NCBI GenBank assembly: GCA_043228905.1
Contig: JBHGNT010000003.1
Coordinates: forward strand, 11,284,001-11,348,000
From: Azolla caroliniana
Lineage: Eukaryota; Plantae; Polypodiophyta
Direction: 5' to 3'
Length of the DNA: 64,000 nt
The notes below the pieces were generated by a model. That model was not told the origin of the DNA, made no database searches, and was given only the letters and a program-made list of their open reading frames with translations. Below are positions 2,240-61,330 of this stretch, in pieces. The number at the start of each line of letters is the position of its first letter. The first letter of the stretch is position 1. The position numbers and the translations under genes are program-made.

Positions 2240-2369
2240 TTAACGATCACGGTAATTACCGATTAATATAGTATATTTCCGTTCGTAAAACACAATTCCT
2301 TGTTAGAACGTTGAGTAGCAACGTTCACTCTTCTATATCGGTAGTAGTTAGTAATTAGCCGATTAACAG

Positions 2370-2891
2370 TACGCCCGAAACTTGCACACGCTCGTATGTC
2401 CGAAAATGTGCGTATGCATCCTTGCGCTCGTCCGCACACACGCGTCCGTCCGAAACGTCCACGCAATGGTGCACGCATACGCCCGAAACTTGCACATGTG
2501 CGAACATCCGAAAACATCCACGCGGTCGTGCACGGACATGCACGTACGCCCAAAGCATCCACATGATCATGCATCACCACACAATGTAGCCCAAGTCACC
2601 TTCAACATTCTGTGCTCCACACATTGATATAACTAATATGTTTTGGTTTCCCTTATATTTCTTGGGTTCCAATATTGTCCTATCTATGTGGGATATCTCA
2701 TAGTTTTGTCTTTTCTTTTTTTTCTTCAAACTTCACAGTCACATAAATGGATACTTGTTTATCCGTTTTATGTATAGTAAAATACACTATGAAGCTCTTG
2801 AAGACATTTATCTTCCCATATGAATACATTAAGGTAATCTTAAATAGTTGTTTTACTATTTTTCATATCGTGTGTGAAAAACCACACGACA
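2370..2891 (-). mobile_element. Partial LTR (U3 end) of the tRNA-Trp-primed gypsy group
   Basis: Shares tgctccacacat...ctatgtgggatatctca and the terminus cacgaca with LTR 51663-52649; right flank CCGG; left boundary approximate. Confidence 0.6.
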
Positions 2892-3545
2892 CCGGAGTAT
2901 GAAGTTGCTGTTGTCCTTTATTCCAAACTTGTTCGAAACAAACTTTATTATTTGGTACATTGGCTCGGCTATAGTCCGAGCGTCGTCGAGCATGTCACCA
3001 ATGCTTAGGATCTTCTTGCTGAGTTCCACCGAAAGTATCTGAACAAACTCGGTCCGCAATCAACGCCAACTCGTTCCACTTGTCGTCTTAAGGGGGAGAT
3101 AGTGTCATGATATGGCAAGACTCGAACCCATGACCTTATGTTATATGAGTCCAGCTCTTGACCATTATACCATCTATTGTAATACGTAGGATATTATTTT
3201 TATTTAAGTTATAGGAAATTAATGTATATTTCAAATCTCTCTGGAACATTCTAGAAGCTTCAGGATTACTCCTAAGAACACTATAAAATAAGGCATTGGG
3301 CATTATTTTGGACCAAATTGGTTCAACGCCAGTCTTAAGCCTCATAGCCCTTTTTGTACTTACTCTTCACATAATATATTCTATGTTATCATCATCTCTC
3401 TCTCTCTCTCTCTCGTCCTCGCTATCTCTCTCTCCTCTTCTCTCTTCCTCTCTCGGGAGTCTTACGCAGTCCCGTCCTCTTAGTACTAATAGTACTTCCC
3501 TTTGCGAGTACTAATTCTCTCTCTGTTTCAGTACTATTCCTGACA
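2892..3545 (+). mobile_element. Chromovirus 3' end: decayed chromodomain, PPT and 3' LTR (3103-3545)
   Basis: PEYEVAVVLYSKLVRNKLYYLVHWLGY matches the chromodomain at 23670-23900; PPT aagggggagatag 3090-3102; LTR TGTCA...TGACA. Confidence 0.8.
3118..3172 (-). promoter_or_regulatory. tRNA-type A/B-box module in chromovirus LTR (degenerate copy 3619-3673, + strand)
   Basis: Minus strand TGGTATAATGG ... GGTTCGAGTCT, starts 44 nt apart. Confidence 0.6.
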
Positions 3546-3688
3546 ATTTCTCTGGAATATACATTAATTTCCTATAATAAAACTTAAATCAAAATAATAT
3601 TTTATGTATTACAATAGATTGTATAATGGTGAAGAGCTCAACCCATATAACACAAGGTCATGGGATCGAGTCTTGCCATATCATGACA
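3546..3688 (-). mobile_element. Inverted partial LTR of the same chromovirus family
   Basis: Diverged reverse complement of ~3103-3235; ends TCATGACA. Confidence 0.75.
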
Positions 3689-21672: not shown

Positions 21673-22728
21673 ACTCCCTTGCAACTCGTCTGACGCCGCC
21701 CGACTAAAGGATATCACTTGCAATCCTTCTGGTATCCGACATCGCATCATCTCCGCCTTATAGTCACATAGGTAATGTGACACATCCTTTCCGTTGAATT
21801 GCCCGTTTCTTTGAACAAGCCGCTCTACTACCGACTTTATCTCCAACATCGCACGTTGTTCTTGTTGCATCCGCTCAATCATCATCATCATTATGCTCAT
21901 CGCCTCTTGTTGATTCTCCATCTCCTTGCCACCCACCTTCACGTCGGGTTCACCACTTGTGTCATGCCTTTCGGCGTCAGATTGTTTGCGTGAGTCAGGT
22001 AGGAATCGTTGGGGTTTTGGACTAGGAAGAGGAAGAATTTGAGACGATTTTAATTATGAATAGATTGTTATAAACTTGCGAATCCCACAAGTATAATATA
22101 TTTTATTAATCAGTATTTAGATAAGAATATGTATTTAGATTGAAAGAAAGATATAAGAAACTTGTGAATCCCACAAGTATAGATTATATTATTTTCACGA
22201 ATCCCACGATTATATTAATTGGTTGGTGTTTTCGGAAATATATCCAATTTCCAAGTATTTCACACCCCCCCCATTACATTGTGCTCCCCATCCTTATGTA
22301 GTGATGAGGGAGTCTTAGCAATCCATGCTTTTTTCTTCTCTAACTATAGACTCCATGCTTTTCCTATAGATAGACTATATGCTTTATCTAAAGTGATCAT
22401 GCTTTTTCTAACTTGTGTGTTTTTTATCAACTATAGCGTTCATGCACGCTACATGTGCATGCGTAGCTTTTTCTTTTAGCATGCGTTTTTTTTAACTAAA
22501 GTTTGTCCTAGGTGAACTAACCTTTCTATGTGAAACATTTACTTTTTAACACTAATGAAATGCTAGTGCAATGGTAAGACATTACATTATTAACATGGAG
22601 GTGCAAGGTTTGAATCTTGTCCTATGCATGTAGTGCTTATTTTGATATTTTCTTCCTTTTTTTCTTCATATTTATTCAATCAGTTATTTTATATTATTTT
22701 CACGTAGTGTACAAAATACACTACGACA
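21660..22728 (-). mobile_element. 5' fragment of a tRNA-Trp-primed gypsy: LTR 21960-22728, PBS, gag N-terminus
   Basis: PBS (plus strand TTCACGTCGGGTTCACCA, 21938-21955) equals the plant tRNA-Trp 3' end; gag GQFNGKDVSHYL matches GQFDGRNVTKFL in ORF 51317-51601. Confidence 0.82.
22564..22617 (+). promoter_or_regulatory. tRNA-type A/B-box module in LTR 21960-22728
   Basis: TAGTGCAATGG ... GGTTTGAATCT, starts 43 nt apart. Confidence 0.55.
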
Positions 22729-23189: not shown

Positions 23190-25170
23190 TGTCGAGAGTC
23201 GTGGGTAGGAGATAGAGCGAGAGTGAGAGCGATAGCAAAAGAGAGAGGGTGTGTGTGTGTGCATGAGAGAGAGAGAGAGATAGAGATAGAGATAAGACTT
23301 GAAACAGAAATGAGATTATATTATGATGAAACAAGATTACAATGATGAGGCTAAGGGCTAAAGACTGGTGTTGAACCAAATGAGTTGAAATGAATGTATG
23401 GACACTTATTTATAGATCCTTATGGAGTATTCTAGAATGTTCTAGAATATTTTAGATTTTTATGATAAGAAATATAATCATGAAATATTAAAGGATGTTC
23501 TAGAATAATCTAAAATGTTCTAGAATATTCTAAATATCTTGTAATAACTAAAAATATAATTATTATAATCACACAACATATATGTTATTACAATGGTTAA
23601 GGGTTCAACATATAGACCAAGAAGTCGTGGGTTCGATTCTTGATAAGCCAAAATGTTATCTTCATGACATTATCCCCCCTTCCGATGACGAGTTCCACGA
23701 GTCGAAAGACAAGAGTTCGGACTTGGTTTATGCGGATATTTGTCGTGAAATGCAACAACCATGTCGGAGGCATTAACAAGATGGTCGGCAGGCTCCCATG
23801 TTAGATCATTAGGTGTATAACCTAACCAATCAACCAAATAATATAGTTTGTTGCGGATGATCTTGGAGTCGAGAATGGCAGCAACCTCATATTCAGAGCC
23901 ATTGGAAACTTCGATTTGGAGGTGGGGGAGGTGTAAGAAGATCCGGAATAGAGCTTGTTGTGTAGGGCTCCAAAAGTGAAACATGGAAGACCGGGTAAAG
24001 AAGCATATGAGGAGGGAGATCAAGACGAAATGTCACATCATTGATCTTACCAGAAACGTTGATAATCCAATTTGTAGCAAGGTCGGGTGGTTTTAATGCT
24101 ACCTTGTAAGAGCCATAAACGATCTCCTATTTGAAACATAGTCGATGAATCATGTCGATGACGGTCAACAATCTTCTTTTGAGTGTTTTGGGCATCACAT
24201 AAATGATGCAAAAGTATATCCTGAACTTCTTGGAGTCGAGTGAGCCGATCTTCAGTAGTCGGGTTTTCGGGAGTTTGGGATGTTCAAGCATTGTCCAATG
24301 AGGATGGTACCCAATGTTAGCAAAAAATGGGGAATATCCAGTAGAAGAATGTTCGGAGTTGTTTTAAGCAAATTCCGCCAAATGTAATAAATCCACCCAA
24401 TCATCTTGTTGATAGTTGACAAAACAACGTAGATATTGTTCGACTGTTTGGTTGGTGCGGTGACTTTGCCCATTAGTCTCTGGATGGTAGCCGGAAGAGA
24501 GTTTACAAGAAGTATGTAAGAGTTTGAACATGTGCCACCAAAATTTCGAGATGAATTGGGGACCCTGATCACTGATAATATCATCCGGAAGACCATGATG
24601 GCGAAACACCTCTTGGATGAGTAAATCGGTAGTCTCTTGACTAGTAATGGTCTTCGTGCATCGTCGGAAATGTGTCATCTTCATAAAACGATCGACTATC
24701 GTGAGAATAGAATCAAATCCCTTGGAAGGTGGAAGATCCGTAATAAAGTCCAAGGAAATAGATTTCCATGGGCTCCCCGGAATACGCATTGGTTGTAATA
24801 GGCCATATGGATGATGTCGAGGCTTTTTTGATCGGCAACATGTATCACAACTACGAACATAATCTGTAACAAAATGGCGAAACCGTTGCAACCAATATCA
24901 GCGAGAAATCAACTCAAAAGTCTTGTGGATGCCGAAATGTCCAGTCATTGGCGTGTCATGACATTGTTGCACGACTTTGAGTCGAGAAGGACCGTCAGGC
25001 ACAATCAAAAGAGTTTGTCGAAAAAGCAAACCATCATGCCAACTGAACTGGGTGTAGTCTAGACGAGGATTTTGAGATTGGGAGCTGGAAGCACAATCTT
25101 TAGCCCTTAGCCTACTCATTGTAATCTTGTTTCATCATAATATAATCTCATCTCTATTTCAAGTCTTATA

Positions 25171-25202
<32 letters not shown>

Positions 25203-25531
25203 TCTCTCTCTCTCTCTTTCGCTATCGCTCTATCTCCTACCCACGAGTCTCAACAGTTTGAACCGAATGAGTTGAAATGAATGTATGGACACTTATTTAT
25301 AGATCCTTATGGAGTATTCTAGAATGTTCTAGAATATTTTGGATTTTTATCATAAGAAATATAATCATGAAATATTAAAGGATGTTCTAGAATATTCTAA
25401 ATATCTCGTAATAACTAAAAATATAATTATTATAATCACACAACATATATGTTATTACAATGGTTAAGGGTTCAACACATAAACTAAGAAGTCGTGGGTT
25501 CGATTCTTGATAAGCCAAAATGTTCATGACA
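23190..25531 (-). mobile_element. Internally deleted chromovirus (integrase + chromodomain; LTRs 23190-23669 and ~25095-25531)
   Basis: Integrase CDTC...PWKSISLDFITDLP...SDQGPQF; chromodomain EYEVAAILDSKIIRNKLYYLVDWLGY; PPT at 23670-23683; gag and RT absent. Confidence 0.9.
23586..23640 (+). promoter_or_regulatory. tRNA-type A/B-box module in chromovirus LTR (second copy 25453-25507)
   Basis: TATTACAATGG ... GGTTCGATTCT, starts 44 nt apart. Confidence 0.55.
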
Positions 25532-26624: not shown

Positions 26625-27075
26625 AGTTAGTAAGCTAATTAGCTATCTAAGAATATGATCATAGTTAACTAGCTATTGGTAATAGCTAAATAGTGATTGA
26701 CAATACCTAACTTAGCTATTATCAGCTAATTAGCTACCGCAATAGATAATTAGCTATCTGAGAATATGAGCATAGCTAACTAGCTATTGCCAATAGCTAA
26801 ATAGCTATTGCCAATACTAAACTTAGCTATTATCAACTAATTCGCTATCGCAATAGCTAATTAGCTACCTCAGAAGATGACCATAGCTAACATTAGCTAA
26901 TTAGCTATTGACATTAGCTAATTAGCTACTCACAATAGCTTTTCAATAGCTAATTAGCTACTGTCAATAGCTAATTAGCTACTTGCAATACCTAGTTAGC
27001 TATGTCAATAGCTAATTAGCTACTATGAGAGTATGATCATAGCTAATCAGGTACCACACTAAATCTAACTAGCTA
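26625..27075. repeat. Intronic array of palindromic AGCTAATTAGCT/TAGCTA units
   Basis: Many closely spaced tagcta/agctaattagct motifs. Confidence 0.8.
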
Positions 27076-38900: not shown

Positions 38901-40293
38901 CCTACAAAATCAGATCATTTGTGCAACATGCTTGATCTACTTGCATGACCAGATAATTTGTGTCAGTTGCTACATCTACTTTCAAGATGAGCCCCTCTAA
39001 ACACGCAGCAACATCAACAGTTTCCACACTACCATTGGCCTTAGGAGCAATAAATTCAAACCCTTTAGGCTTTGCACATCAGAAAACACCAACATCGTCC
39101 TAGATTCAAACCCTTTAGGTTCAAAAACATTGTTGTTATGAACCTCAAATTTACATGTTGTTTCCAATATCTCATGGCTTTTCACAACATTGCCTAATTC
39201 AGTACAATCTTCAGATGTTTTCATATAAAAATTTTGCCATGGATGCCACGGTGTTGTCACGTAGTGCTTTGGCTTCCACCCATTTTGTGCAATAATCCGT
39301 AGCGACAATCACGTACCGGTTGTCGGTTCTCATTGCCGGTGGTTTGAATGGACCGACAAAATCTAGTCCCCATTTCTGAAATGGTTCTAACGGTAGCACG
39401 GGCTAGTGAGGCATCCTGGCTTGTTCGGTTGGTTGGCCCATTCGCTGACATAGGTCACATTCTTTAGCGTACCTGACTGCATCCTTCAATGTTGTCGGCC
39501 ACCATAGTCCACTCTGCCATATTTTCCTTGCCCTAGCGTCTTCGGCATAATGTCCTCCAGCCATGCCGCAGTGTGCTTCGCGCAATATTATTCCCTTTTC
39601 GTTGCTGCACCTTTGTGGTACATTGTGTCCTGTAATAGACAGAAGTGCCGGCTTTGAGCCACTAAGCATTTCCTTTCGTCTCTGTTCATCTCCTCCGGAG
39701 GTAAGTGGGTGCTCAAAAATTGGTGCATGTTGGTGAGCCACTTGTCTTCCTCTGCAACCATACCATCCATTGCCGTTTCTGCTGTAACTCTAAACAACTC
39801 TGCATCCGAAAAGTCATCTGGTACGCCATCACCGGTGTCGCGAAGATTCGCGCGTGCATGTGCTACTCGAGCGACCACCGGGGTCTTGGACTGGGGAGGA
39901 CGTTCGTGGAATTATCGACGCTAGATGACGATCAATGTAAGATTGGATGAAATTTGTTCACTTGAGAAGAAGAAAGATTGTACACTTGAGAAGTAGAAAA
40001 ACATGAAGAAGATAAAGACAAATATAATTATATTGATGATAGTGGTGTTGGTGATATCACATATTGAGCCCCCCTTACACAAGCCACACTAGAGGCTTTT
40101 ATAGGTCTTTCCATGCTCGTGACATGCACAAAACCATGGGCTAAAACCATGGTTTTGTGCACACGGTTTTGCTTATGTCATGCACAAACCATGGGTTTAA
40201 AACCATGGTTTTGTGCACATGGTTTTCTATGGTTGTTTCGTCTATAATTTGTATATGAAAAGGAAATACATAAAATCTACACTATATGATAGT

Positions 40294-40347
40294 TGTCCTA
40301 GTGGTAAGGCAATTATCTTGTATCTTAGAGGTGCAAGGTTCAAACCT
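40294..40347 (+). promoter_or_regulatory. tRNA-type A/B-box module in LTR A
   Basis: TGTCCTAGTGG ... GGTTCAAACCT, starts 43 nt apart. Confidence 0.55.
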
Positions 40348-40560
40348 TGCTTGCACCCCTCTGTATGAACTCAAGTGCCACTAGGCCTTAGGAGGCTTAT
40401 TTGCTAAGTGTATGTGCAATGTTGCACATCCTTGGTTTATTCGTCTCACTCGGTTTCACACCGTAGCCGAAAATCGTCACGACATCCACCCCCACCAAAC
40501 CCGCACATCCTCCGGTATGTGCCGAGAAAGGTGAAGAGGTGAGATCTTTGGCAACGGTGA

Positions 40561-43500
40561 TCAACCGAGTTCCTCTGCACGCTCGTCTTCCTCGTCTGAC
40601 TTCGTCTTCCACTTCGAGTATGCGCAATCTTTCCAACCGAACCACCGTAGCCACCCGATCCACCATATCCGGCGCTCACACCATCTTCCCCGATCGGTTG
40701 TAGTAGATCTACCGAACGATGTCGTCGACACGACCGCTCTTCCTTCGTCCACCGCGCGTGTCCTTCGATTGGACTCCTGGCCACTCCTCACGCTCACCGT
40801 CTTCAACTGGGTATTGTAGATCGTTCGTGTCGATCTCCGATTAGGCCGGGTTTGCCCTTGTCCGGATCGGTCTCCACCGATCGCTTCTTGGCTTGGTTGG
40901 CCTTCGTCTGCATTCACATTTCCCCGAGTCGGGCTCGACCGATTGATTCTGGCTGGGTTGGCCCCCTTTTGGATCGGAATCGTCCGATCGAATTTCGCCG
41001 AATCAGGTTTCTGTTGGGAATCAACGCTTGGATTCACCTTCACCACTCGGCCACAACCGATTAATCGCGGATCAATGCAGCAGAAAATAGGAACCACACG
41101 GAGAAACAAAAAAAAAACCGCGAGCACACAGGGATTAACGTGGAAAACCCTAGACGGGAAAAACCACGGGAGTACAAGACTCCAAACCAACACTATACAG
41201 AGAAGTATACAATGGCGAGCTCCAAGGCGACGACCTTGAGCTCGCTGTCCTCGCCACAGGCGGCGGAAATACACAGAGGCGTCTACCTCTTCCACTCTCG
41301 CGCTCTATCTCTCTCTCTCTCTCACGGCTGCTCCCTCTTCACTCCTCTTGAGTGGAAAAACAGAAAAATGGGTAGCAACTCTAAAACTGTTTGCCCTAAG
41401 TCATATTTATACACATATGACTTTGGGACTATTTACAACTGTGGCCTCAGGGGCCCATAGCGAACATATTCACGGATATGTCCCTGCATCCGGATCGCTC
41501 TCCGGGTACATTCGTCATCCGGCACCGAAGCCGGGGTCTTCGTCATCCGGATCCGAAACCGAAACCGGGCCTGTCGGCATTCATCTCCGACATCCGACCA
41601 TCCCATCCGAAGGGACCGTAATCCCAACAAACTCCCCCTTCACTTCGGCATGGGATGTCTCTCCAATCCGATCCTCTTCCGGCATGCTTCCAACTTGTCG
41701 GGTGTGAGGACCTTGGTCAGCATATCCGACCCGTTCTCGTCCGTGTGGATCTTCGTCAGCACGAACTCCTTGTCTTCTATCCTTTCCCGGATCCAGTGAT
41801 ATCTTCGCTGGATGTGCTTCGTCCGGGAGTGATAGGCCACGTTCTTTGCAAGGTGGATTGCACTCTGACTGTCGCAGTAGAGTCGGTACTCCTCCTGCCG
41901 GATACCGAGCTCTCTAATGAAGTCCTTCATCCATATTATTTCCTTGCCGGCTTCAACAGCCGCCATGTACTCCGCCTCCGTGGTTGACAGCGCAACCGTC
42001 TTCTGCAACCTCGACTGCCACGAAACGGCTCCCCCTGCATACGTCATCACATACCCTGATGTGGACCGGCTGGTATCTGTATCAGCCGACATATCCGAAT
42101 CGGTGAAACCGTCGAGTTCGGGTTTACCGGAGCCGAATCGGAGGCACACGTTTGCCGTGCCCTTCAGGTATCGGAGTATCCACTTGACCGCGTTCCAATG
42201 CTCTTTGCCGGGATTGCTCATGTACCGGCTCACCACTCCGACTGCATATCCGATGTCCGGTCTCGTACACACCATGGCGTACATCAAGCTCCCGACGGCT
42301 GAGGCATACGGCACTTTCATCATATCCTCCTTTTCAGCCTTTGTCTTGGGACTTTGCTTGCTGGACAGCTTGCAGTTTGCCGGGAGGGTTGATCCGACCG
42401 GTCTTGCTTCCGACATGTTGAACCGGTGAAGCACCTTCGTCACGTACTTCTCCTGTGACAGCCACAACTGCTTCTTCTTCCGGTCCCGGATGATGTGCAT
42501 CCCTAGTATTTGTCTCGCCGGACCCAGGTCCTTCATTGAGAAGGTTCGGTGAAGAGCCTTCTTCAGCATCCGGATCTTGACCTGGTCCCGTCCGACGATC
42601 AACATGTCGTCCACGTACAGGAGGAGTATTAGAAAGTCTCCTCCTTCGAACTTCTTCACAAACACGCAGTGGTCGGACTGCGTTTTGAGGTACCCTTCGT
42701 CGGTCATGAAGGAGTCGAACTTCCGGTACCATTGCCGGGGAGCCTGCTTCAGTCCGTAAAGGCTCTTCTTCAACCGGCATACCAGGTGCTCCTTCCCTTC
42801 CTTCTCGAATCCTTCCGGTTGCTGCATGTAGATCTCTTCTTCGAGGTCACCGTGAAGGAATGCCGTCTTCACGTCCATCTGTTCTACCTCGAGGTCCATG
42901 CTTGCCGCTATGCTCAGCACCGTCCGGATGGAGGTCATCTTCACTACCGGGGCAAATATCTCGTCGAAGTCGACGCCCTTCTTTTGCTGAAACCCCTTCA
43001 CCACGATCCTGGCTTTGTATCTCGGGGGGTTTCCGGCATCTCCCGGTTTCAGCTTGAACACCCACTTGTTTCGAAGTGCCCGCTTTCCTTTCGGCAACTC
43101 CACAAGTTCATATGTGTGGTTCTCATGCAGGGAATCCATCTCGTCCTGCATGGCACTCAACCACCTGCGGCTCTGGGTGTCATGCTTTGCTTCTTCAAAG
43201 CTCTCCGGCTCCCCCTCGTCGGTTAGCAACACGTGCTCTGGTTCCGGAAATCTCCGGGGGGCCCTTCTCTCTCTTTGAGGGTATCTCCGTTTCGGAGCTT
43301 CGGTAACCGGTTCTTCCGATTCTTCTTCATCCGAATCCATTTCGGGATCGGGGCCGGTTCCGGTATCATTTTCGTCTTCTTCGGCCGGTTCGGTTTCTTC
43401 ACCGTCTTCGGCCGGGTCCTCGAGTGCTAACCGGTCCCTTGCCGGTCGGGACTGCTCCTTGTAGAGTTGATCCTCACCGGTCGACTTGGAGCTCTTCATC

Positions 43501-46500
43501 TTCGTCTCCGACTCCCAGTCGGCGAGTGTCTTGTCCTCCATGAAGATGATGTCTCGACTCCTGAATATCTTCTTGTCGACCGGGTCCCATACTCGGTAGC
43601 CGAACTCGTCGTCGCCGTAACCGAGGAATATGCATGGCCGGGTCTTCGGATCTAGCTTTCCTCTCCGGTCCTTTGCCACATGCACGTATGCGAGACACCC
43701 GAACACCTTCAGATGCCGGTAGGACACTTCCTTACCGGTCCACACTTTCTGCGGCGTGTCTCCGTCCAAAGGTACTGAGGGTGATCTGTTTATCACGTAT
43801 GTTGCCGTCGACATTGCCTCAGCCCAAAACCCCTTGGGTAATTTCGCATGCGCCAGCATACTCCGGACCCTCTCCATTATGGTCCGGTTCATCCTCTCGG
43901 CCAGCCCGTTTAGTTCCGGCGTCTTCGGCACAGTAAACTCGAGCCGGATTCCCTTCGAGCGACAGTACTCCTGGAACTGTCCCCGGTATTCCCCTCCGTT
44001 ATCCGCTCGTATCGCTTTCAGCTTCTTGCCGGATTCCCTTTCCACTCTCGCGTGGAGTTCTTTGAAGACGCACAACACTTGGTCCTTTGTCTTCAACGGT
44101 GCCGTCCACAGCTTCCGGCTGTGATCATCAATGAATGTTACGAAGTACTGGGCTCCGCCATGTGACTTCGTTTCTACCTGACACACATCAGTGTGCACCA
44201 ACTCCAATGGTGCGCTCCGTCTCGTCGGTGGCCTTGAGTGGAAGGAGGTTCGGTTCTGCTTACCGGCCAGGCAATCGGTGCACTTCTCCAGGTGCACATG
44301 CTTCACTGGGATAAGGTTGTCTTCTGCAAGCCTCTTCATCCCCTTCTCACTCATGTGGCACAGTCTCTTGTGCCACAGCTCACCGGCAGTGTCGGCTGCC
44401 ACATTCAGTTCTTCCGGACATAACCGGGCATTCATCAGGTACAGTGTGTTGACTTTCCGGGCCCGAGCCACTATCAGGCTCCCCTTGCTGAACTTCATTA
44501 CGCCGTTCCGGATGCTACCTGTGTAGCCTTCATCGTCTAGCCTCCCGGCCGAAATCAGGTTCAATCGAACCTCCGGAACGTGTCGGACATCCTTCAGCAG
44601 CATTTTGCATCCGGTCGGGGTTGTCAACCACACGTCTCCTATGCCGGAAATCCGGCACGTACCTTCATTTCCCATCCGAACACAGCCATGCTCACCGGCT
44701 GTGTAGGATGAGAAGTATCTTCTCTCCGGGGTCAGGTGGAACGATGCTCCGGAATCGACCACCCAGGTCGTCTCATCGCCGGCAACGTTTAGCTCACCTT
44801 CTTCGGTGATGAGCATGATTTCTTCCTCACTTGCCGCGAGTGCCGTTGTTCCTTTCCGGTCCTGTCCTCGCCGATCCGAACCATTCCGGTCCGTGGCTCC
44901 CCGGTATGCACCGTTTCTCTCCGGTGACTTCTTCGAATCGGTGTTGTCGGTTCCATTGTCTTTTCGGTAATGCCGACAATTCTTTCGGAAGTGCCCCGGC
45001 TTCCCACAGTGATCGGAAGCATGTGGGCCTTCCTCTTGACTGCGACCGGGTCCCCGACTTCTCCCGTCTTTGCGGACTCCGGTTCCATTGTCTTCCCCGA
45101 TCCGATTCGGTAAACAGCATCTTCGGGTCGGAGGCCGGTTCCTTATCTCTCCGACGCGCTTCTTCATTCAGAATACTTGTCTTTACCGTTTGTAAGGACA
45201 AGTTATCTTCGGTGCACGAGGTGCTGAGAGTCACCACCAAGTTCTCCCAGCTTTCCGGCAATGTACACATCAGGATGATGGCTTGCATTGCATCCTCCAA
45301 CGGGAACTTGATCGCCGCAAGCTGATTCACGAATCCCATGAACGTGCTTACGTGTTCAACCATACTCTCGCCGTCCCGGTACTTGAGATTCACTATCTTC
45401 CTCATCAGGGAGGTCCGGTTCAACGCATTCTTCCTCTCATAGAGGCCCGACAGCTTCTTCCACATCTCATATGCGTTGGTGTCGTTTGCCACATGTTGTA
45501 GGACGCTTACATCGACATATTGTCGGATCGTCGCTACGGCTTTCCGGTTCAGGAGCTTCCACTCCGACTCAAGTACCCCTTTCGGTATTTCCGACCTGTC
45601 AATCGGTTCGTACAGGTCCCGAACAATCAGAAGATCCTCCAGCTTGATCTTCCAGTCGGCGTAATTCTGCGCATTCAGCACCATCATCATCGGCTGCCCG
45701 CTGCCGCCGCCTTCCATTTTCTGCAACAGTCGCTCTGATACCAGTTTGTTGGGAATCAACGCTTGGATTCACCTTCACCACTCGGCCACAACCGATTAAT
45801 CGCGGATCAATGCAGCAGAAAATAGGAACCACACGGAGAAACAAAAAGAAAAAACCGCGAGCACACAGGGATTAACGTGGAAAACCCTAGACGGGAAAAA
45901 CCACGGGAGTACAAGACTCCAAACCAACACTATACAGAGAAGTATACAATGGCGAGCTCCAAGGCGACGACCTTGAGCTCGCTGTCCTCGCCACAGGCGG
46001 CGGAAATACACAGAGGCGTCTACCTCTTCCTCTCTCGCGCTCTATCTCTCTCTCTCTCTCACGGCTGCTCCCTCTTCACTCCTCTTGAGTGGAAAAACAG
46101 AAAAATGGGTAGCAACTCTAAAACTGTTTGCCCTAAGTCATATTTATACACATATGACTTTGGGACTATTTACAACTGTGGCCTCAGGGGCCCATAGCGA
46201 ACATATTCACGGATATGTCCCTGCATCCGGATCGCTCTCCGGGTACATTCGTCATCCGGCACCGAAGCCGGGGTCTTCGTCATCCGGATCCGAAACCGAA
46301 ACCGGGCCTGTCGGCATTCATCTCCGACATCCGACCATCCCATCCGAAGGGACCGTAATCCCAACAGTTTCAGCCGGGTCGGCCCCGGTCGATCGACTCC
46401 CATGTGGATCTTCCTTCGTTCGGGTCGGAATCCCGGCTGGATCGTCTTCCGGTTCAACCGGTTCTCGACTCTTCCTTCCTTCCCGCATGCAACCTCTCCA

Positions 46501-48041: not shown

Positions 48042-48312
48042 CTTCGTCCTCCCCAATTGCTCTTCACCAAATGATGTCGCGAAGATTCGCGCGTGCGTGT
48101 GCTACTCGAGCGACCACCGGGGTCTTGGACTGGGGAGGACGTTCGCGGAATTATCGATGCTAGATGACGATCAATGTAAGATTAGATGAAATTGGTTTAC
48201 TTGAGAAGGAGAAAAATTGTACACTTGAGAAGTAGAAAAACATGAAGAAGATAAAGAGAAATATAATTATATTGATGATAGTGGTGTTGGTGATATCACA
48301 TATTGAGCCCCC

Positions 48313-51300
48313 GAGTTCGTTGCGCCTTGGGGTAAGGTACACATCCGCACAAGCCCGATCGGAGTCCTCATGGTTGTAATGTCCCGACTGTCGATCGCCA
48401 ACTGGAATTGGTCATATCCGGAGTAGAGATCGCCAATGGAGTAGATGGACCGGCCCGCAAACGCTTCTGCAAATTCGTCCACGCTCGGACCGATTCCGGC
48501 ATTTCGAATTGTCACCTTGTTGACGGGTTGAAGATCTTGGATGAATCGCAATGATCCATTCTTTTTCGGCACCGTGAACCACCTATTGGAATAAGGAGCA
48601 TTCGGCGGTTCTAGAATTCCCATACTCACCTTCTCCTTTAAGAGCTCGATCAGCTTCGGAAGGTGTGCTCTCGGAACCGGTATCGGTTTCAAATTCCAAG
48701 GCACATGAGGCATCGTGAAGATCACCATTGGCTCTATAACCTTTGGGTCGACGCATCCGATTTCTCGTGGGAAGAATGCGAAAGCCTTCCCATGTCTCTC
48801 AAGCATATCACGAAACATTCGCTCCTCTTCAGGGAGAAGGAAATCCTCCTTTCCAACTCGTAGCTTCCCCTTCGTCTCTTTGGTGAAGTCATGACCTATC
48901 TTCTTTGGATCTCTTAAGCTTGGATCGTTAGCGACTTCCTTCATCTTTTGCCAGCTATCTTCCGGTAGCGGAACCGCAACTGGCTTGATCTTCTTATCCA
49001 CCGTTTTATATTTCGTGTTGATGTCAGCTTCCTTCATCAAGATGCCACGACGGTATTCATCGATGATAGCATACATGTTGACGGAGTTAACCGAAATCAC
49101 GCGTTGGTTGTGAAGATAGCTCAAGTCCACGACGTCCTCGATTTCACCGATGGTGTCGTTAAATGAGGCTTCTTCGATAATATGAGTCACGAACTCTCCT
49201 TCTATTATGTTCTCTTCTTTCAGCATCTTCTCGAATTCTTGTATCCGGTGCTTGTGCTTCTTGTCGGGTAGTACAAGTTTACATGCGCCACTAGGTGTGA
49301 CACATATTGGTTCTCCTTGCAATCCACGCGCTCTTCTTTCTTGTGGGGTCTTGTGATTGCTCATACTATTTGTGCCCCATGCTTCAATAGTCCGCTCTAA
49401 AAATCCGAGGATTCGCCTCCGAGACTATCTTGATTCCTTTCATGATTGGCTCACACTGTTAGGAATTGGACCGATCTTTGGTTGTCAAGACTCTTTATTC
49501 GTGCGAAGGCTGCTCCATTATCGAACACTTTGGTCTCCATCCGAGATGATGTGATATAAGGTTGCCCTAGGATGACAGGATGCGACGCCGATTCTTGTAC
49601 GAAGAAGTGTTGATCCATCTCCACATCCCCGATCGTGACTTTGACATTGGGACAAGCTCCGTACAAGTCCTCCGTAGACTTTGTTGCCGCGCGAATCTTC
49701 CATCCGTGGTTTGTATTGATTGGCCATCTTCCCTTTTTGTAGAAGTCGGTTGACATGAGGTTGATCTCCGAGCCGTGGTCGATCAAGGCTACGACGGTCT
49801 CTTTCTTCTCCCCGATCTTTACCGGCGTCTCCGTTGTCGCTCGTGCCCAATGAGGTCGAGTGTAGTGGCTGTCCACCATATCTTCATCGATTTCGTCTCT
49901 TGCCATCGTTATGGCATTCATTTTTGCTTTCTGCGGCTTCTCTTCTTCCTCGTCCGATTGTTGTCTCTTTCTCTTTACAAGGTCCACGATCGTGTCATGG
50001 AACTCCTTCTTCGTAATGCCAAGCAATTCCCTCAAGGACAAAGTTACGTGGCTATCAAGAACTCGTTCTTCGAGAATCTTCTTTAGGTCCGTCATCTGCT
50101 CTATGTCCGACCTTAGCTTATAGGTAGGTATGGTCCTTGTCCTCCGAGCGGGGTCTTCGACACCAACCTTCACAGGCCGAACCGTTTCTTCAACTCGTAT
50201 GCTCGGCTCCCCTTTTCGGCTTGATTCTCGTTCCTCCGTTTGTAAAGGTCGACTCGTCTCCGCATCGTCCTTCTTTTTCGCGTTCCTTGTTTCATGTCTT
50301 TTTGATGGCCCTTGCTCTTCTATTCTCTTTCTCTTTTCTTCGACGAACACCTCGTGGTTGTCGCACATCACCTCTGCGAGTATGGTGTTGTCGTCCACCA
50401 GATCCGACCACCCGGTTATGCTTTGCACGTTTCGGTCCGCAAGCTCTACCTCGTTCGATGTGACTTTTCCCTTCTTCTCATATTCGAGAACGGAAGTCCT
50501 AAACTTTGCTCCCGCTCTAGCAACTTCAGTCTTGTCTTTCCCGACTCTTATTCCGGCCGACGCAGCATAGTGCATCGCATCCACATGAGTCGCATCGGCA
50601 TCCTCCATAGATTTCTTCATTCCTCCTCTTCCGAAATTCACCCGTAGGGGTCTTCTAGTCTCGCTTGAGCAGATCATGTTGTCCTCTATGTATACGATAT
50701 TTTGTCGAATCGCCTCTCGAAGGCTCGCACAATCCCTTCTCATGTGGTCCATGCTATCGCACCACACGCATCTAAAGGGTTCTTTTCCTTTAGGGCCCCG
50801 ACGATTCATGTTGGCTAGAGTGACCTTCTCGAACTTCTTCGCTAGCTCTTCGATGATGTCGTCATCAATCTTCTTTTCTTCCACGTTACTTTGTCTCAGC
50901 GGCTCAGCTACTTTCGGCGGTCTTGCTTTCTCCGTGGTAGTCGGTCCCGTCAAGTCGGTGTCATCAACCCATTGGCGACGCTTGTCGAGCCTATTGCATG
51001 CCCGCTTCACCGCGATCCAGTCCGCTACGAGCCCATTTGCTTGGGTATCATCTTCGAGAAGAGTCCCCAACTCTCGTCTATCCTTTATGTCCACGGCCTT
51101 CAAGAAGTACAAAGTCTTGTCCTCTTCAAGCAATACTTGGTCCGTATTGGGGAGACGACTAAACATCTTGTCGAATTCGTCGTACACCCTCGAGACGCTC
51201 ATCTTCTTATTCTTCTTCTCTATCCACTTCATCAGGGCATGTCGAGTCATCCTCGTTGAGTCTTCAGTCACGAACTCCGCTAGTATCGTTTTCTCGAACT

Positions 51301-52649
51301 CGGACCATGTTCTCTTTCATTCTTGAAGCTCGATGACGCGTCTTTGGATGTTGTTGGCGACAACTCTCTTGAAGCTTGCGATTTGACGTGCCTCGAACAC
51401 GTCCCTTTGATTCATCTCCCTCTTATATGCATCAAGGAACTTCGTAACGTTCCTTCCATCGAATTGGCCCTCGAGCTCTACGACACGATCGACAGCCTTC
51501 TCCATGCTCGCGTCGTTGTCCCGAGATCTCATCATTTGCTCGACGATTAGCATCATCCTTTCGAGCTCTCCTGCTTGGTTGCTTGAGGACGCCATCTCCA
51601 AGTATTAATCTCGACTTGATCCTTCCTACCGCCTCTTTCACGTCGGGTTCACCACTTAATTATGTCGTGAAGATCCGTCACTACGCGCGGATCGTGAGGC
51701 GGAACCGCCGGGGTTCTGGACTAGAAGGATTTAGAGTCGATACAAGCTTTGGCGAGAAAGTACTTAAGATAGATTGAGAAAGAGAGAAGATGAGATTACA
51801 CGATTGATTTCATAACGAATTTCTTCTTCTTAATTTTCATAACAAAAAACTGTGTTTTTCTCCTCCCCCTTCCCTCTTTTATAGATGCTCTCATGCATAT
51901 GATGCATGTGAGGGTAAAAGGCATGCATAAATTGCATGTTTGCCATTTGGCGCTTAAGTATTACATGTGGTGCATGCTAACCATGTCACTCATTTTAGCA
52001 CTCATGGATGAGAATTTACATGTAAAAGTACAATGATAGAAATATAATTTCAACTAAATACTATGGCTTAATGGTAAGCCATTTGACTCCTAACTTGGAG
52101 GTGCAAGGTTCGAATCCATACTTGCCCTCCTTGTATATGTATATATTTTTATATATTTATTTTATCTAGTCGCCGGATGCCGACGCCGGATACCGACGCC
52201 GGATACCGGTGCCGCATGCCGCCATCAGATTGCGGTCGGATGCCGTCTGATCACCGGCTCCATCGTCGGTCCGGTTTTGGTTGGCCAAAACCCTTTACGA
52301 GTAGCTAGCCACCTCCACTCTAAGTTCAAGTTACCTTGAACTCTCTATGCTCCACACATAGACACAAAGATAATATCTTTTGCTCCACCTTATATATGAT
52401 GAGAGCCGTATTTGTCGTGCCTATGTGGGATATCTCACAATTTTCTCTTTTCTTTTCACAAACTTTATACCCTCATATCTTGACATTTAGTTGTCCATTT
52501 CTCGTGTAATAAAGTGCATTCGAAACCTCCATCATTTTGTACTTTAGATATTAAAAATGTTATCTTCACAATTATTGTATTACATGATTCATACTCGATT
52601 TTGTACGTTTTGTGGGATTTTCACACTATTGCCGAAAATCTTCACGACA
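48313..52649 (-). mobile_element. tRNA-Trp-primed Ty3/gypsy element B: 5' LTR 51663-52649, gag, protease, truncated RT
   Basis: 12-bp LTR terminal IR TGTCGTGAAGAT/ATCTTCACGACA; 18-nt Trp PBS 51637-51654; CVWCDSMDHMRRDC; ALIDHGSEINLM; LRFIQDLQPVN...LPQGATNS. Confidence 0.9.
52064..52117 (+). promoter_or_regulatory. tRNA-type Pol III A/B-box module in LTR B
   Basis: A box TGGCTTAATGG 52064-52074; B box GGTTCGAATCC 52107-52117; both fit consensus; T-run at 52146-52150. Confidence 0.7.
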
Positions 52650-59706: not shown

Positions 59707-61330
59707 ATGGGTAGACAAAAAGGCCTAGAGTGGGAACATGTTCTAATTCAAGTAAAGAATGCAAAAGGAATGAATTTGATGAAATGCAAATATTGTAATC
59801 ATGTCTTTGTCGGTGGCCCTCATCGAATTAGGGCCCATATATTGGGAATAAGAGGAGAAGGTGTAGAAAAATGCACAAAAGCAAGTGATATTGTGACGAG
59901 TCAATTAAGAATGCAATGGTTCATGGAAATGATCACTTGAATTCAGATGTACAAACAGATCCAAATAGTAATACTATTGTTAATGCTAATGCAAATGCGT
60001 CTACAGATGCCTCTATTTCTAGTTCCATTTCAATGAATAAAATGGCTACTAAAATTCAAAAAATAGAGACGAGTGGTTCACTCCCAATGTCTTTTGAATT
60101 GGCATTGAGGAAACAGGTAGAAGACACTATTGCAAGATTTTTTTATGCGGAAGATATTGCACATTGGAAAGTGGAAAGCTCATTTTTCCATGATATGCTT
60201 ATGGTTGTTTCAAAAGTGGGTCCTTCGTTTAAAGCACCTTCTACTTATCAATTGCATAAGAAATATCTTAATGGAGAAGTTGTAAATGTTGAGCATGATC
60301 TTATATTGTTGAAAGAGAGTTGGAAGACATGGATGCACTATTGTTAGTGATGGTTGGTCAGACACTAGAAATAGACCAATTATTATTGTTTTAGCTTCTT
60401 CACTACATGGCACAATGTTTTTGAAATCAATAGATACACGTGGTCATGTCAAGACAGGTGAATACATATTAAAAATTTTGAAGGATGTTATTCTTGAAGT
60501 TAGACCATCAAATGTAGTTCAAGTTTGTATGGATAATGCCGCAAATTGTGTGACTGCGGGACATAAGATAAAAGCGGAGTGGCCATCTATAATTCACACT
60601 AGATGCACTTGCCATTGCGTTGATTTGTTGTTGGAGGATATTCGCAAATGTGCTTGGATTGATGCCATTTTGCGATCAACTATGAAGATTAGTGGTTTCA
60701 TAACTAGAAAACAATATGCTTTGGCCATGTTTTGCAAGTTTAGTGGAAAAGACTTGCTTAAACCTTCTATGACTAGGTTTTCTTACAATTTTATTGTGTT
60801 ATCGAATTTTTGGATGATAAAGTATATGGTGGTTTGAGAAGAATGGTGGTTAGTGAACAATGGTGCTAGAACAAAGAAACCAGAAGAGATGGTTTCAATT
60901 GTATTGGATGCTAACTTTTTGGCAAATGTAAAGATGATTGTGAAGGTATGCAAACCAATTTTAAAGCTTCTTCGTTTGACTGATAGGGAAGATGCTATAA
61001 TGGGGTTGATTTATCAATTTAAACAACAAATGTTGATGGAGATAAACAATATGACAGATATTGATCCTATGAAGCTTGATGAAATAAAAGAGTGTTACAT
61101 ACATAGACTAACAATGTTGGAATCGCCATTGCATGCAGCGGGATATGTCTTGCATCCATTATGAACACCAAATGATCAACAAATAGATCATGATTTACTG
61201 ATGGGCTGGATGAAAACAATCATGCTTTATGCTAGTGGTAATATAGTTTTACAAAATGTTGTGTTAGATGAGTTTTATGAATATAGAAAACAAGCATCGG
61301 ATTTGTTTCAAGTTCCATTTGCAAAGGATG
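59707..61330 (+). pseudogene. hAT transposase pseudogene (BED finger + DUF659-type core)
   Basis: WEH...CKYC...RIRAH...C; SDGWSD; VVQVCMDNAAN; CTCHCVDLLLEDI; LHAAGYVLHP; stops and frameshifts; cut by an LTR at 61331. Confidence 0.88.

Follow-up and report, generated by a model that had tools for sequence, protein, structure and literature searches.

Across a 64,000-nucleotide stretch of the Azolla caroliniana genome (contig JBHGNT010000003.1; hereafter the window), LTRs of Ty3/gypsy retrotransposons contain an A box and a B box that are spaced as in tRNA genes and face backwards relative to the element. RNA polymerase III (Pol III) promoters in LTRs have so far been known from tiny non-coding elements, the TRIMs, in which they are thought to make the RNA of the element. 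A backward-facing promoter that is kept across many families of fully coding elements must serve another purpose.

Antisense A/B-box modules in a nest of LTR retrotransposons

LTR retrotransposons lie nested within one another in the window, which has a GC content of 46% and contains both gypsy and copia domains. When the sequence was re-read, each of the seven A/B-box pairs from which this analysis started was found in place, inside an LTR and antisense to its element, with box starts 43 nt apart at 52064, 40294 and 22564 and 44 nt apart at 23586, 25453, 3619 and 3172. The sequence-only reading had spoken of seven LTR copies; the seven pairs stand, but the copies fall into five families (P1, P2, P3, T1 and T2). 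A motif scan of the window with a textbook A/B-box consensus, set against a background of 60 block-wise dinucleotide shuffles, returned eight pairs at two or fewer mismatches versus a shuffle mean of 0.52 (maximum 2). Looser thresholds approached chance, with 59 pairs at up to four mismatches versus 48.4 in the shuffles. The eighth pair, at 40388 on the minus strand, has a spacing of 42, is in sense orientation and lies in an inverted duplication around the palindromic B box of P2 (40294-40388).

The module had not been seen in copia or Athila-like LTRs at first reading. Eight copia-type LTR copies score four or more mismatches, and a whole-window scan at three or fewer mismatches, in which the Athila-like LTRs are not cleanly delimited, adds only three chance-level hits with spacings of 46-47. 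ARAGORN called 0 tRNAs in the window, and a profile search of the window with Rfam RF00005 gave no match at E<=10. Such Rfam matches as the window does contain are hairpin miRNA models elsewhere or weak chance matches, and were set aside.

Three further features of the nest were recorded. A young copia element at 41012-46366 is inserted in P2 (LTRs 99.5% identical, 1175-aa pol frame), and a long imperfect palindrome of short repeats at 26628-27040 gives weak Rfam miRNA-precursor matches far below gathering scores. The frame at 60313-60834 contains a DUF659 domain (PF04937) and is likely to be part of a hAT-type DNA transposon.

P1 to P3 are Phygy-like, as judged from primer site and flank, and the pol of P1 is truncated. 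Their features, with those of a fourth LTR piece, are as follows.

52064..52117, plus strand: P1 module; A box 52064-52074, B box 52107-52117, spacing 43, 0 mismatches
51663..52649, minus strand: P1 5' LTR, Phygy-like, 987 bp; outer flank CCGG; high-copy family
51877..51883, minus strand: candidate Pol II TATA box of P1, read from sequence, 181 nt from the A box
51639..51654, minus strand: P1 primer-binding site, tRNA-Trp type
48270..51523, minus strand: P1 gag and start of pol (protease, RT N-terminus), truncated
40294..40347, plus strand: P2 module; spacing 43, 1 mismatch, palindromic B box; overlapped by the weak sense pair at 40388
39836..40484, minus strand: P2 3' LTR, Phygy-like, preceded by a purine tract; outer flank CCGG
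22564..22617, plus strand: P3 module; spacing 43, 1 mismatch
21960..22728, minus strand: P3 5' LTR, Phygy-like; Trp-type primer site 21940-21955; outer flank CCGC
2301..2891, minus strand: P4 LTR piece without module; left end uncertain, flank CCGG

A remnant of the P2 5' LTR lies at 48075-48312. The Trp-type primer site spans 16 nt in P1 and P3 and only 7 nt in P2; we take the P1 motif to be of tRNA-Trp identity, which fits the Phygy row of Neumann 2019. The outer flanks of P1, P2 and P3 (CCGG, CCGG and CCGC) fit NCGN, with one flank each, the partner flanks being lost. The P1 RT piece is 30% identical to the Tcn1-like RT, a search of a prokaryote sequence collection gave no match to P1 gag, and the named relatives of one pol are from Riccia and Calypogeia (liverworts) and Adiantum (fern). 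The gags of P1, P2 and P3 share 33-35% identity. Apart from short terminal stretches, the module (47-69 nt, 76-83%) is the one part of the 650-990-bp LTRs of these three elements that can still be aligned. In the P elements the module probably lies in U3, although the P1 LTR has a second TATA-like motif further upstream, near 52390.

The P4 LTR piece is a possible exception within this lineage, as it has a 130-bp block in common with P1 (52327-52456 on the P1 side) and lacks the module. The common block holds a TATA-like motif, upstream in the P1 LTR, and a locus outside the window, L110, also bears a P4-like LTR. Judging from this shared block, the P1 LTR may be a chimera of two LTR types.

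T1 and T2 are Tcn1-like, with a chromodomain after the integrase and ahead of the purine tract; self-priming is seen in related loci outside the window and is not visible in the truncated window copies, none of which has kept two clean flanks. Their features are as follows.

3118..3172, minus strand: T1a module; spacing 44, 0 mismatches; B box 15 nt from the outer edge of the LTR
3103..3545, plus strand: T1 3' LTR, Tcn1-like, following a broken chromodomain (about 2898-3099) and a purine tract
3619..3673, plus strand: T1b module; 2 mismatches, spacing 44; within the LTR fragment 3546-3688 (minus strand), which the end of the T1a LTR truncates
23586..23640, plus strand: T2a module; spacing 44, 1 mismatch; in the 3' LTR at 23190-23669 (minus strand)
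25453..25507, plus strand: T2b module, in a 5' LTR piece of T2 at 25258-25531 (minus strand)
23673..24897, minus strand: T2 integrase core (PF00665) and chromodomain (PF00385), in broken frames

The T2 chromodomain matches PF00385 with E=8.5e-12, and its aromatic-cage Y and W-x-x-Y columns are kept in the alignment. In the 5' LTR of T2 the R-U5 part (25094-25256) is inverted relative to the U3 part. The module is thus present, as had been proposed, in a chromovirus lineage (T1 and T2) as well as in a Trp-primed lineage (P1-P3). The sequence between the boxes was said to differ among families, and it does, but within a lineage the middle still aligns, at 42-65% ungapped identity.

The module in Tcn1-like LTRs outside the window

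For a survey beyond the window, loci were chosen by protein alone, without the box motif. The query alignment consisted of the T2 chromodomain and 41 of its 71 relatives; a metagenome search by protein matched at least 605 stretches, of which 237 were confirmed, and the best 80 of these 237, at 51-91% identity, were used. Taxon sampling is narrow, since 79 of the 80 loci come from one series of assemblies. The loci encode RT-RH-INT-chromodomain. Fourteen were dropped (9 without a recognisable purine tract and TG, 5 with less than 150 nt of LTR), three of which still bear the module, and the first 250 nt of each of the 66 remaining LTRs were scored with the spacing left free from 38 to 50.

An antisense module at two or fewer mismatches was found in 53 of the 66 LTRs from the best 80 of 237 loci, and a sense pair in none (0/66); by the same criterion, controls gave 0/54 in coding sequence and 1/660 in shuffles. 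When the LTRs from these loci were clustered at 80% identity, 23 of 33 clusters had the module at two or fewer mismatches and 27 of 33 at three or fewer, leaving six of the 33 without it. The sole locus from another source, L116, has no module. Although spacing was free to vary, it was 43-44 in 57 of the 58 outside module loci (again from the best 80 of 237). The B box lies 15 to 62 nt from the LTR edge across 26 cluster representatives, and the A box lies 115-253 nt from the TATA box in the 15 outside LTRs measured, so that the range of about 110-190 bp first given for this distance was too narrow.

These elements are self-primed: in 7 of 9 outside loci the stretch that follows the LTR can pair with the part of R lying directly beyond the TATA box, and this complementarity co-varies between families; tandem Tcn1-like elements with a common LTR (L082, L059 and L088) likewise show Tf1-type self-priming complementarity. 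This match to R places the module of Tcn1-like LTRs in U3.

A matrix trained on 26 outside loci was applied to the window, and its top distinct sites were exactly the seven modules, at 28-45 bits versus a shuffle maximum of 19.3; the sense pair at 40388 fell outside the top 16 hits. ARAGORN, run on 60 outside loci, called no module and only two ordinary tRNA genes. These may be seen in L063 (552-906), where nuclear tRNA genes for Asn and Thr lie beside an integrase fragment with no LTR junction between.

In one chromovirus subclade the linker between protease and RT is lengthened and holds a second antisense A/B pair in frame with pol; 9 of the 38 rows scored have it. The linker modules, in closely related Tcn1-like elements, are located as follows.

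L082, 5378-5432: linker module
L094, 70-123: linker module
L070, L088-L091 and L098: further linker modules

On the LTR-trained matrix the linker module scores 13.8-21.9 bits (the L089 copy below 13), and two real tRNA genes score 21.8 and 24.0. Its sequence is suggestive of a separate gain. Scans of viral contigs were also made and yielded two distant gypsy loci, with 31 and 3 further pattern hits that are chance matches without retroelement likeness.

Conservation of the boxes and candidate functions

Mean pairwise identity was computed across the 26 cluster representatives (survey from the best 80 of 237 loci). It was 0.78 for the B box, 0.63 for the A box and 0.64 for the ten bases before the B box, versus 0.33-0.37 for the middle and 0.34-0.38 for the flanks; the representatives were picked by box match, and the box identities are therefore partly circular. 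AGGT at tRNA positions 44-47, which is absent from the search motif, is kept in 23-26 of the 26.

The P1 family is high-copy in contigs of public DNA runs (6760 contigs from X1), with module coverage like that of the flanks; contigs of other families in such runs start at the A box. Across four DNA runs, P1 has 2 variable sites among 36 box positions, both purine-degenerate, and 10 among 18 middle positions, with no indel in the module; the sites were counted by hand, and the counts flatter the boxes because B-box variants partly escape as loose ends. The expectation that the boxes would be better kept than their surroundings is borne out against the middle (Fisher p=8e-5) and the near flank (the nearest 37 upstream bases, p=0.006), but fails against the whole 104-nt upstream stretch of P1, from which the boxes do not differ significantly (2/36 versus 17/104, p=0.16). 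One presumed RNA run gave six contigs, and contigs cannot reveal strand or start.

The module might be no more than what is left of an ancient SINE or tRNA insertion that persists neutrally. According to PMC10886601 (here and below, the literature is cited from excerpts of the full texts), 'not a few' Repbase LTRs hold tRNA-like pieces, for which SINE insertion has been proposed as the origin, and the G-T pairs in the old T stem of the module do resemble decay. However, the boxes are kept while middle and flanks lie at background identity, the module is fixed across families, and no tail or target duplication is apparent by eye around the seven modules. Lineage-wide fixation and box conservation largely refute neutrality, so that passive carriage has very little probability, although a SINE may still have been the source. 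By its pattern of conservation, the module is a lineage-wide fixed trait under selection and no sporadic SINE copy. It had further been suggested that two lineages captured it convergently. Dissimilarity cannot prove separate captures, since chromovirus modules taken alone already have a randomised middle, and the distribution may stem from exchange of LTRs or from descent from fungal relatives of Tcn1 (PMC2864245) instead of convergence.

What, then, is selected? The module resembles a type-2 Pol III promoter in its A and B boxes, its workable spacing and its contacted bases, kept except for C62, and is by these sequence features no Helenus element, SINE copy or tRNA gene. On balance we favour, with moderate confidence, the reading that the antisense, outward-facing pair likely binds TFIIIC and places TFIIIB, and so probably keeps the Pol II promoter of the element open. 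TFIIIC would bind the conserved boxes upstream of the LTR TATA box, as the type-2 motif match and structural work suggest, and TFIIIB, from its known geometry, would sit on AT-rich DNA between the boxes and the Pol II promoter. This divergent arrangement would keep the element's Pol II promoter open, or shielded, in repeat-rich chromatin, a benefit drawn by analogy to the tDNA barriers of yeast and animals. The antisense orientation would exclude a tRNA-like fold from the genomic RNA and would direct Pol III away from the Pol II start.

Several details bear on this TFIIIC/TFIIIB reading. The B box is read by the tauB part of TFIIIC, which also encloses the DNA on its upstream side (PMC11811891); this would account for the conservation of AGGTC before the B box. 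Among the bases contacted, G53 is kept in 25/26, T55 in 26/26 and C56 in 24/26 representatives; C62, from a contacted pair, is kept in only 11/26, with T in 12/26, and G57 is replaced by A in 8/26, both of which count against TFIIIC. The AT-rich DNA to which TFIIIC brings TFIIIB lies no more than about 50 nt ahead of the start (PMC13578239). In the 26 representatives AT content is 79% over the 60 nt that precede the A box, and TFIIIB is predicted on the side that faces the TATA box of the LTR; no TATA or CAA motif at a set position was found in this upstream stretch of the representatives, which counts against the reading. Since TFIIIC bridges 30-67 bp between the boxes (PMC11811891), the fixed spacing of 43-44 is not explained by binding alone.

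No acceptor or anticodon stem had been seen to survive in the modules, and the representatives agree: across the 26, pairing in these two stems does not exceed that of slid controls, the D stem lies slightly above such controls and the outer T stem does not. Boxes kept without stems, product or fixed terminator are fitted best by a DNA element. Alternatively, the selected product might be an RNA, either a Pol III hairpin or an antisense transcript over the purine tract and the chromodomain, that tunes silencing or copy number. P1, P2 and P3 each fold a hairpin around the B box (folding without a shuffle control), which fits a small-RNA product; a T5 run follows the P1 module 28 nt downstream and a T4 run the P3 module 22 nt downstream, and foamy viruses transcribe U3 miRNAs from A/B boxes (PMC3993851). 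Yet the terminator is not fixed: only 7 of the 26 Tcn1-like representatives have a T4 run on the stretch from B box to LTR edge, and three of the seven window copies (P2, T2a and T1b) have none within 400 nt. Moreover, the would-be transcribed middle and 3' part are randomised, and from a 5' LTR a Pol III transcript would enter arbitrary host DNA. The original proposal had offered the TFIIIC/Pol III module either as an anti-silencing insulator or as a source of antisense RNA; its antisense-RNA arm is weakened by the terminator counts, and we consider an RNA product rather unlikely.

The sequence-only reading had overlooked a rival at the RNA level, in which U3 of the genomic RNA anneals to the variable loop, T arm and D loop of a packaged tRNA and thereby bridges the RNA ends or aids strand transfer. 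Such pairing accounts for the antisense orientation, the U3 location and the tRNA-like spacing without extra assumptions, and the conserved block at tRNA positions 44-61, about 18 nt, has the size of a primer site. The U3-R region of HIV-1 is reportedly a similar case of tRNA pairing. In Ty3, U3 pairs with the T and D arms of the tRNA (PMC5371799), and in Drosophila Gypsy a 3' site bridges both RNA ends (PMC1635307). Against this, Tcn1-like elements are self-primed in the 7 of 9 loci described above and so have no primer tRNA to bridge, and the linker module in pol is not at an RNA end. For the P elements, the T stem of the primer tRNA should read RCGTG to judge from the primer site, but the module shows CAAGG at this place without variation. 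The P module may have originated from the element's own primer tRNA; sequence searches for a host-type tRNA-Trp gave 0 hits, or 21 with other tRNAs or none. Among the substitutions in the module are C>T and A>G changes; wobble pairing would not allow them, though they arise by decay too. Pairing of the RNA 5' end with the element's own U3 module was considered as well and set aside, since it was better than the mean of other families in just 2 of 15 cases. Pairing with a tRNA has, in our judgement, a modest chance of being the true function, greater than that of an RNA product.

A last alternative is an integration beacon, in which TFIIIC and TFIIIB on old LTRs would draw related insertions into existing repeat islands. 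The T1a LTR does end 73 nt upstream of the T1b A box, where it abuts the T1b LTR in opposite orientation at 3545/3546, and Ty3 targets Pol III genes (PMC8632968). This is, however, a single junction. Of the 58 outside module LTRs (best 80 of 237 loci), 45 reach R without a break and no break distance recurs among the remaining 13, and the P elements sit at NCGN sites within coding regions of other elements. We regard a beacon as highly improbable.

Comparison with known systems and implications

The closest described likeness is to the Helenus TRIMs and TRIMp3, in which a tRNA-like LTR stretch has its conservation centred on boxes A and B and holds no functional tRNA (PMC10886601). Helenus elements are short (about 1 kb or less) and non-coding, whereas the elements here encode gag and pol and retain a TATA box: P1 has gag and pol, and T2 an integrase and a chromodomain. 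The boxes of Helenus-1_SMo, from Selaginella, are in sense, so that its genomic RNA would be made by Pol III, in contrast to the antisense modules here (53/66 versus 0/66 sense among LTRs from the best 80 of 237 loci). The excerpted text of Kojima 2024 (PMC10886601) treats short non-coding elements only, and expects the autonomous partners of TRIMs to be driven from ordinary Pol II LTRs. Cassandra and Ajax also have a small-RNA-gene-derived Pol III promoter in the LTR, but theirs is a 5S-derived type-1 promoter and the elements are non-autonomous; Ajax had been described at the outset as tRNA-derived, a description that belongs to Helenus (PMC10886601).

Autonomous retroelements with A/B-box Pol III units are known in the foamy viruses, whose cassettes lie in U3 (PMC3993851), and in BLV, whose miRNA cluster lies elsewhere (PMC12498455). 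These viral units have defined hairpin products, terminators and shown expression, whereas the modules here, in plant Ty3/gypsy elements, have tRNA-like geometry and no fixed terminator. The bipartite primer site of Ty3 and the 3' site of Drosophila Gypsy are similar in being antisense tRNA-like DNA near the RNA 3' end (PMC5371799, PMC1635307). Those sites match the element's own primer tRNA, however, while here the T lineage is self-primed and the P lineage departs from the T stem of its primer towards a perfect B box. In a Culex element a tRNA dimer is found at the primer site (PMC3286476).

Among plants, Tcn1 elements are known from mosses and club-mosses; Phygy, of which 81% use a tRNA-Trp primer, was defined in Physcomitrella (PMC6317226). 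The T elements resemble Tcn1 in chromodomain and self-priming and the P elements resemble Phygy in their Trp-type primer site and NCGN flank, but the excerpted descriptions of Tcn1 and Phygy mention no Pol III boxes in LTRs (PMC6317226, PMC2864245). An excerpted sugar-beet preprint mentions Pol III promoters in LTR elements for TRIM cases only. In searches of the openly available full-text literature we found no description of a lineage-wide antisense A/B module in the LTRs of coding plant gypsy elements.

Barriers formed by tDNA are documented for yeast and animals, not for plants (PMC9540200, in excerpt). A broader and more tentative reading, to which we give distinctly less credence than to TFIIIC binding itself, is that elements of non-seed plants have repeatedly built in a TFIIIC/TFIIIB site, in the Tcn1-like LTR, the Phygy-like LTR and the pol linker, as a portable chromatin barrier. 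If TFIIIC does bind, the module would offer a mutable 55-bp target for the question of how transposons stay active inside heterochromatin, and a handle on whether tDNA-type barriers work in plants. If instead a tRNA pairs with it, the module would point to a role for tRNA in a self-primed retroelement. Should the portable-barrier reading be true, repeat islands would be seeded with very many Pol III factor sites, and transposon activity would be tied to the growth-controlled Pol III machinery. This could explain the behaviour of the moss element RLG1, a chromodomain gypsy retrotransposon that is expressed in unstressed, growing tissue and repressed by stress (PMC7466625).
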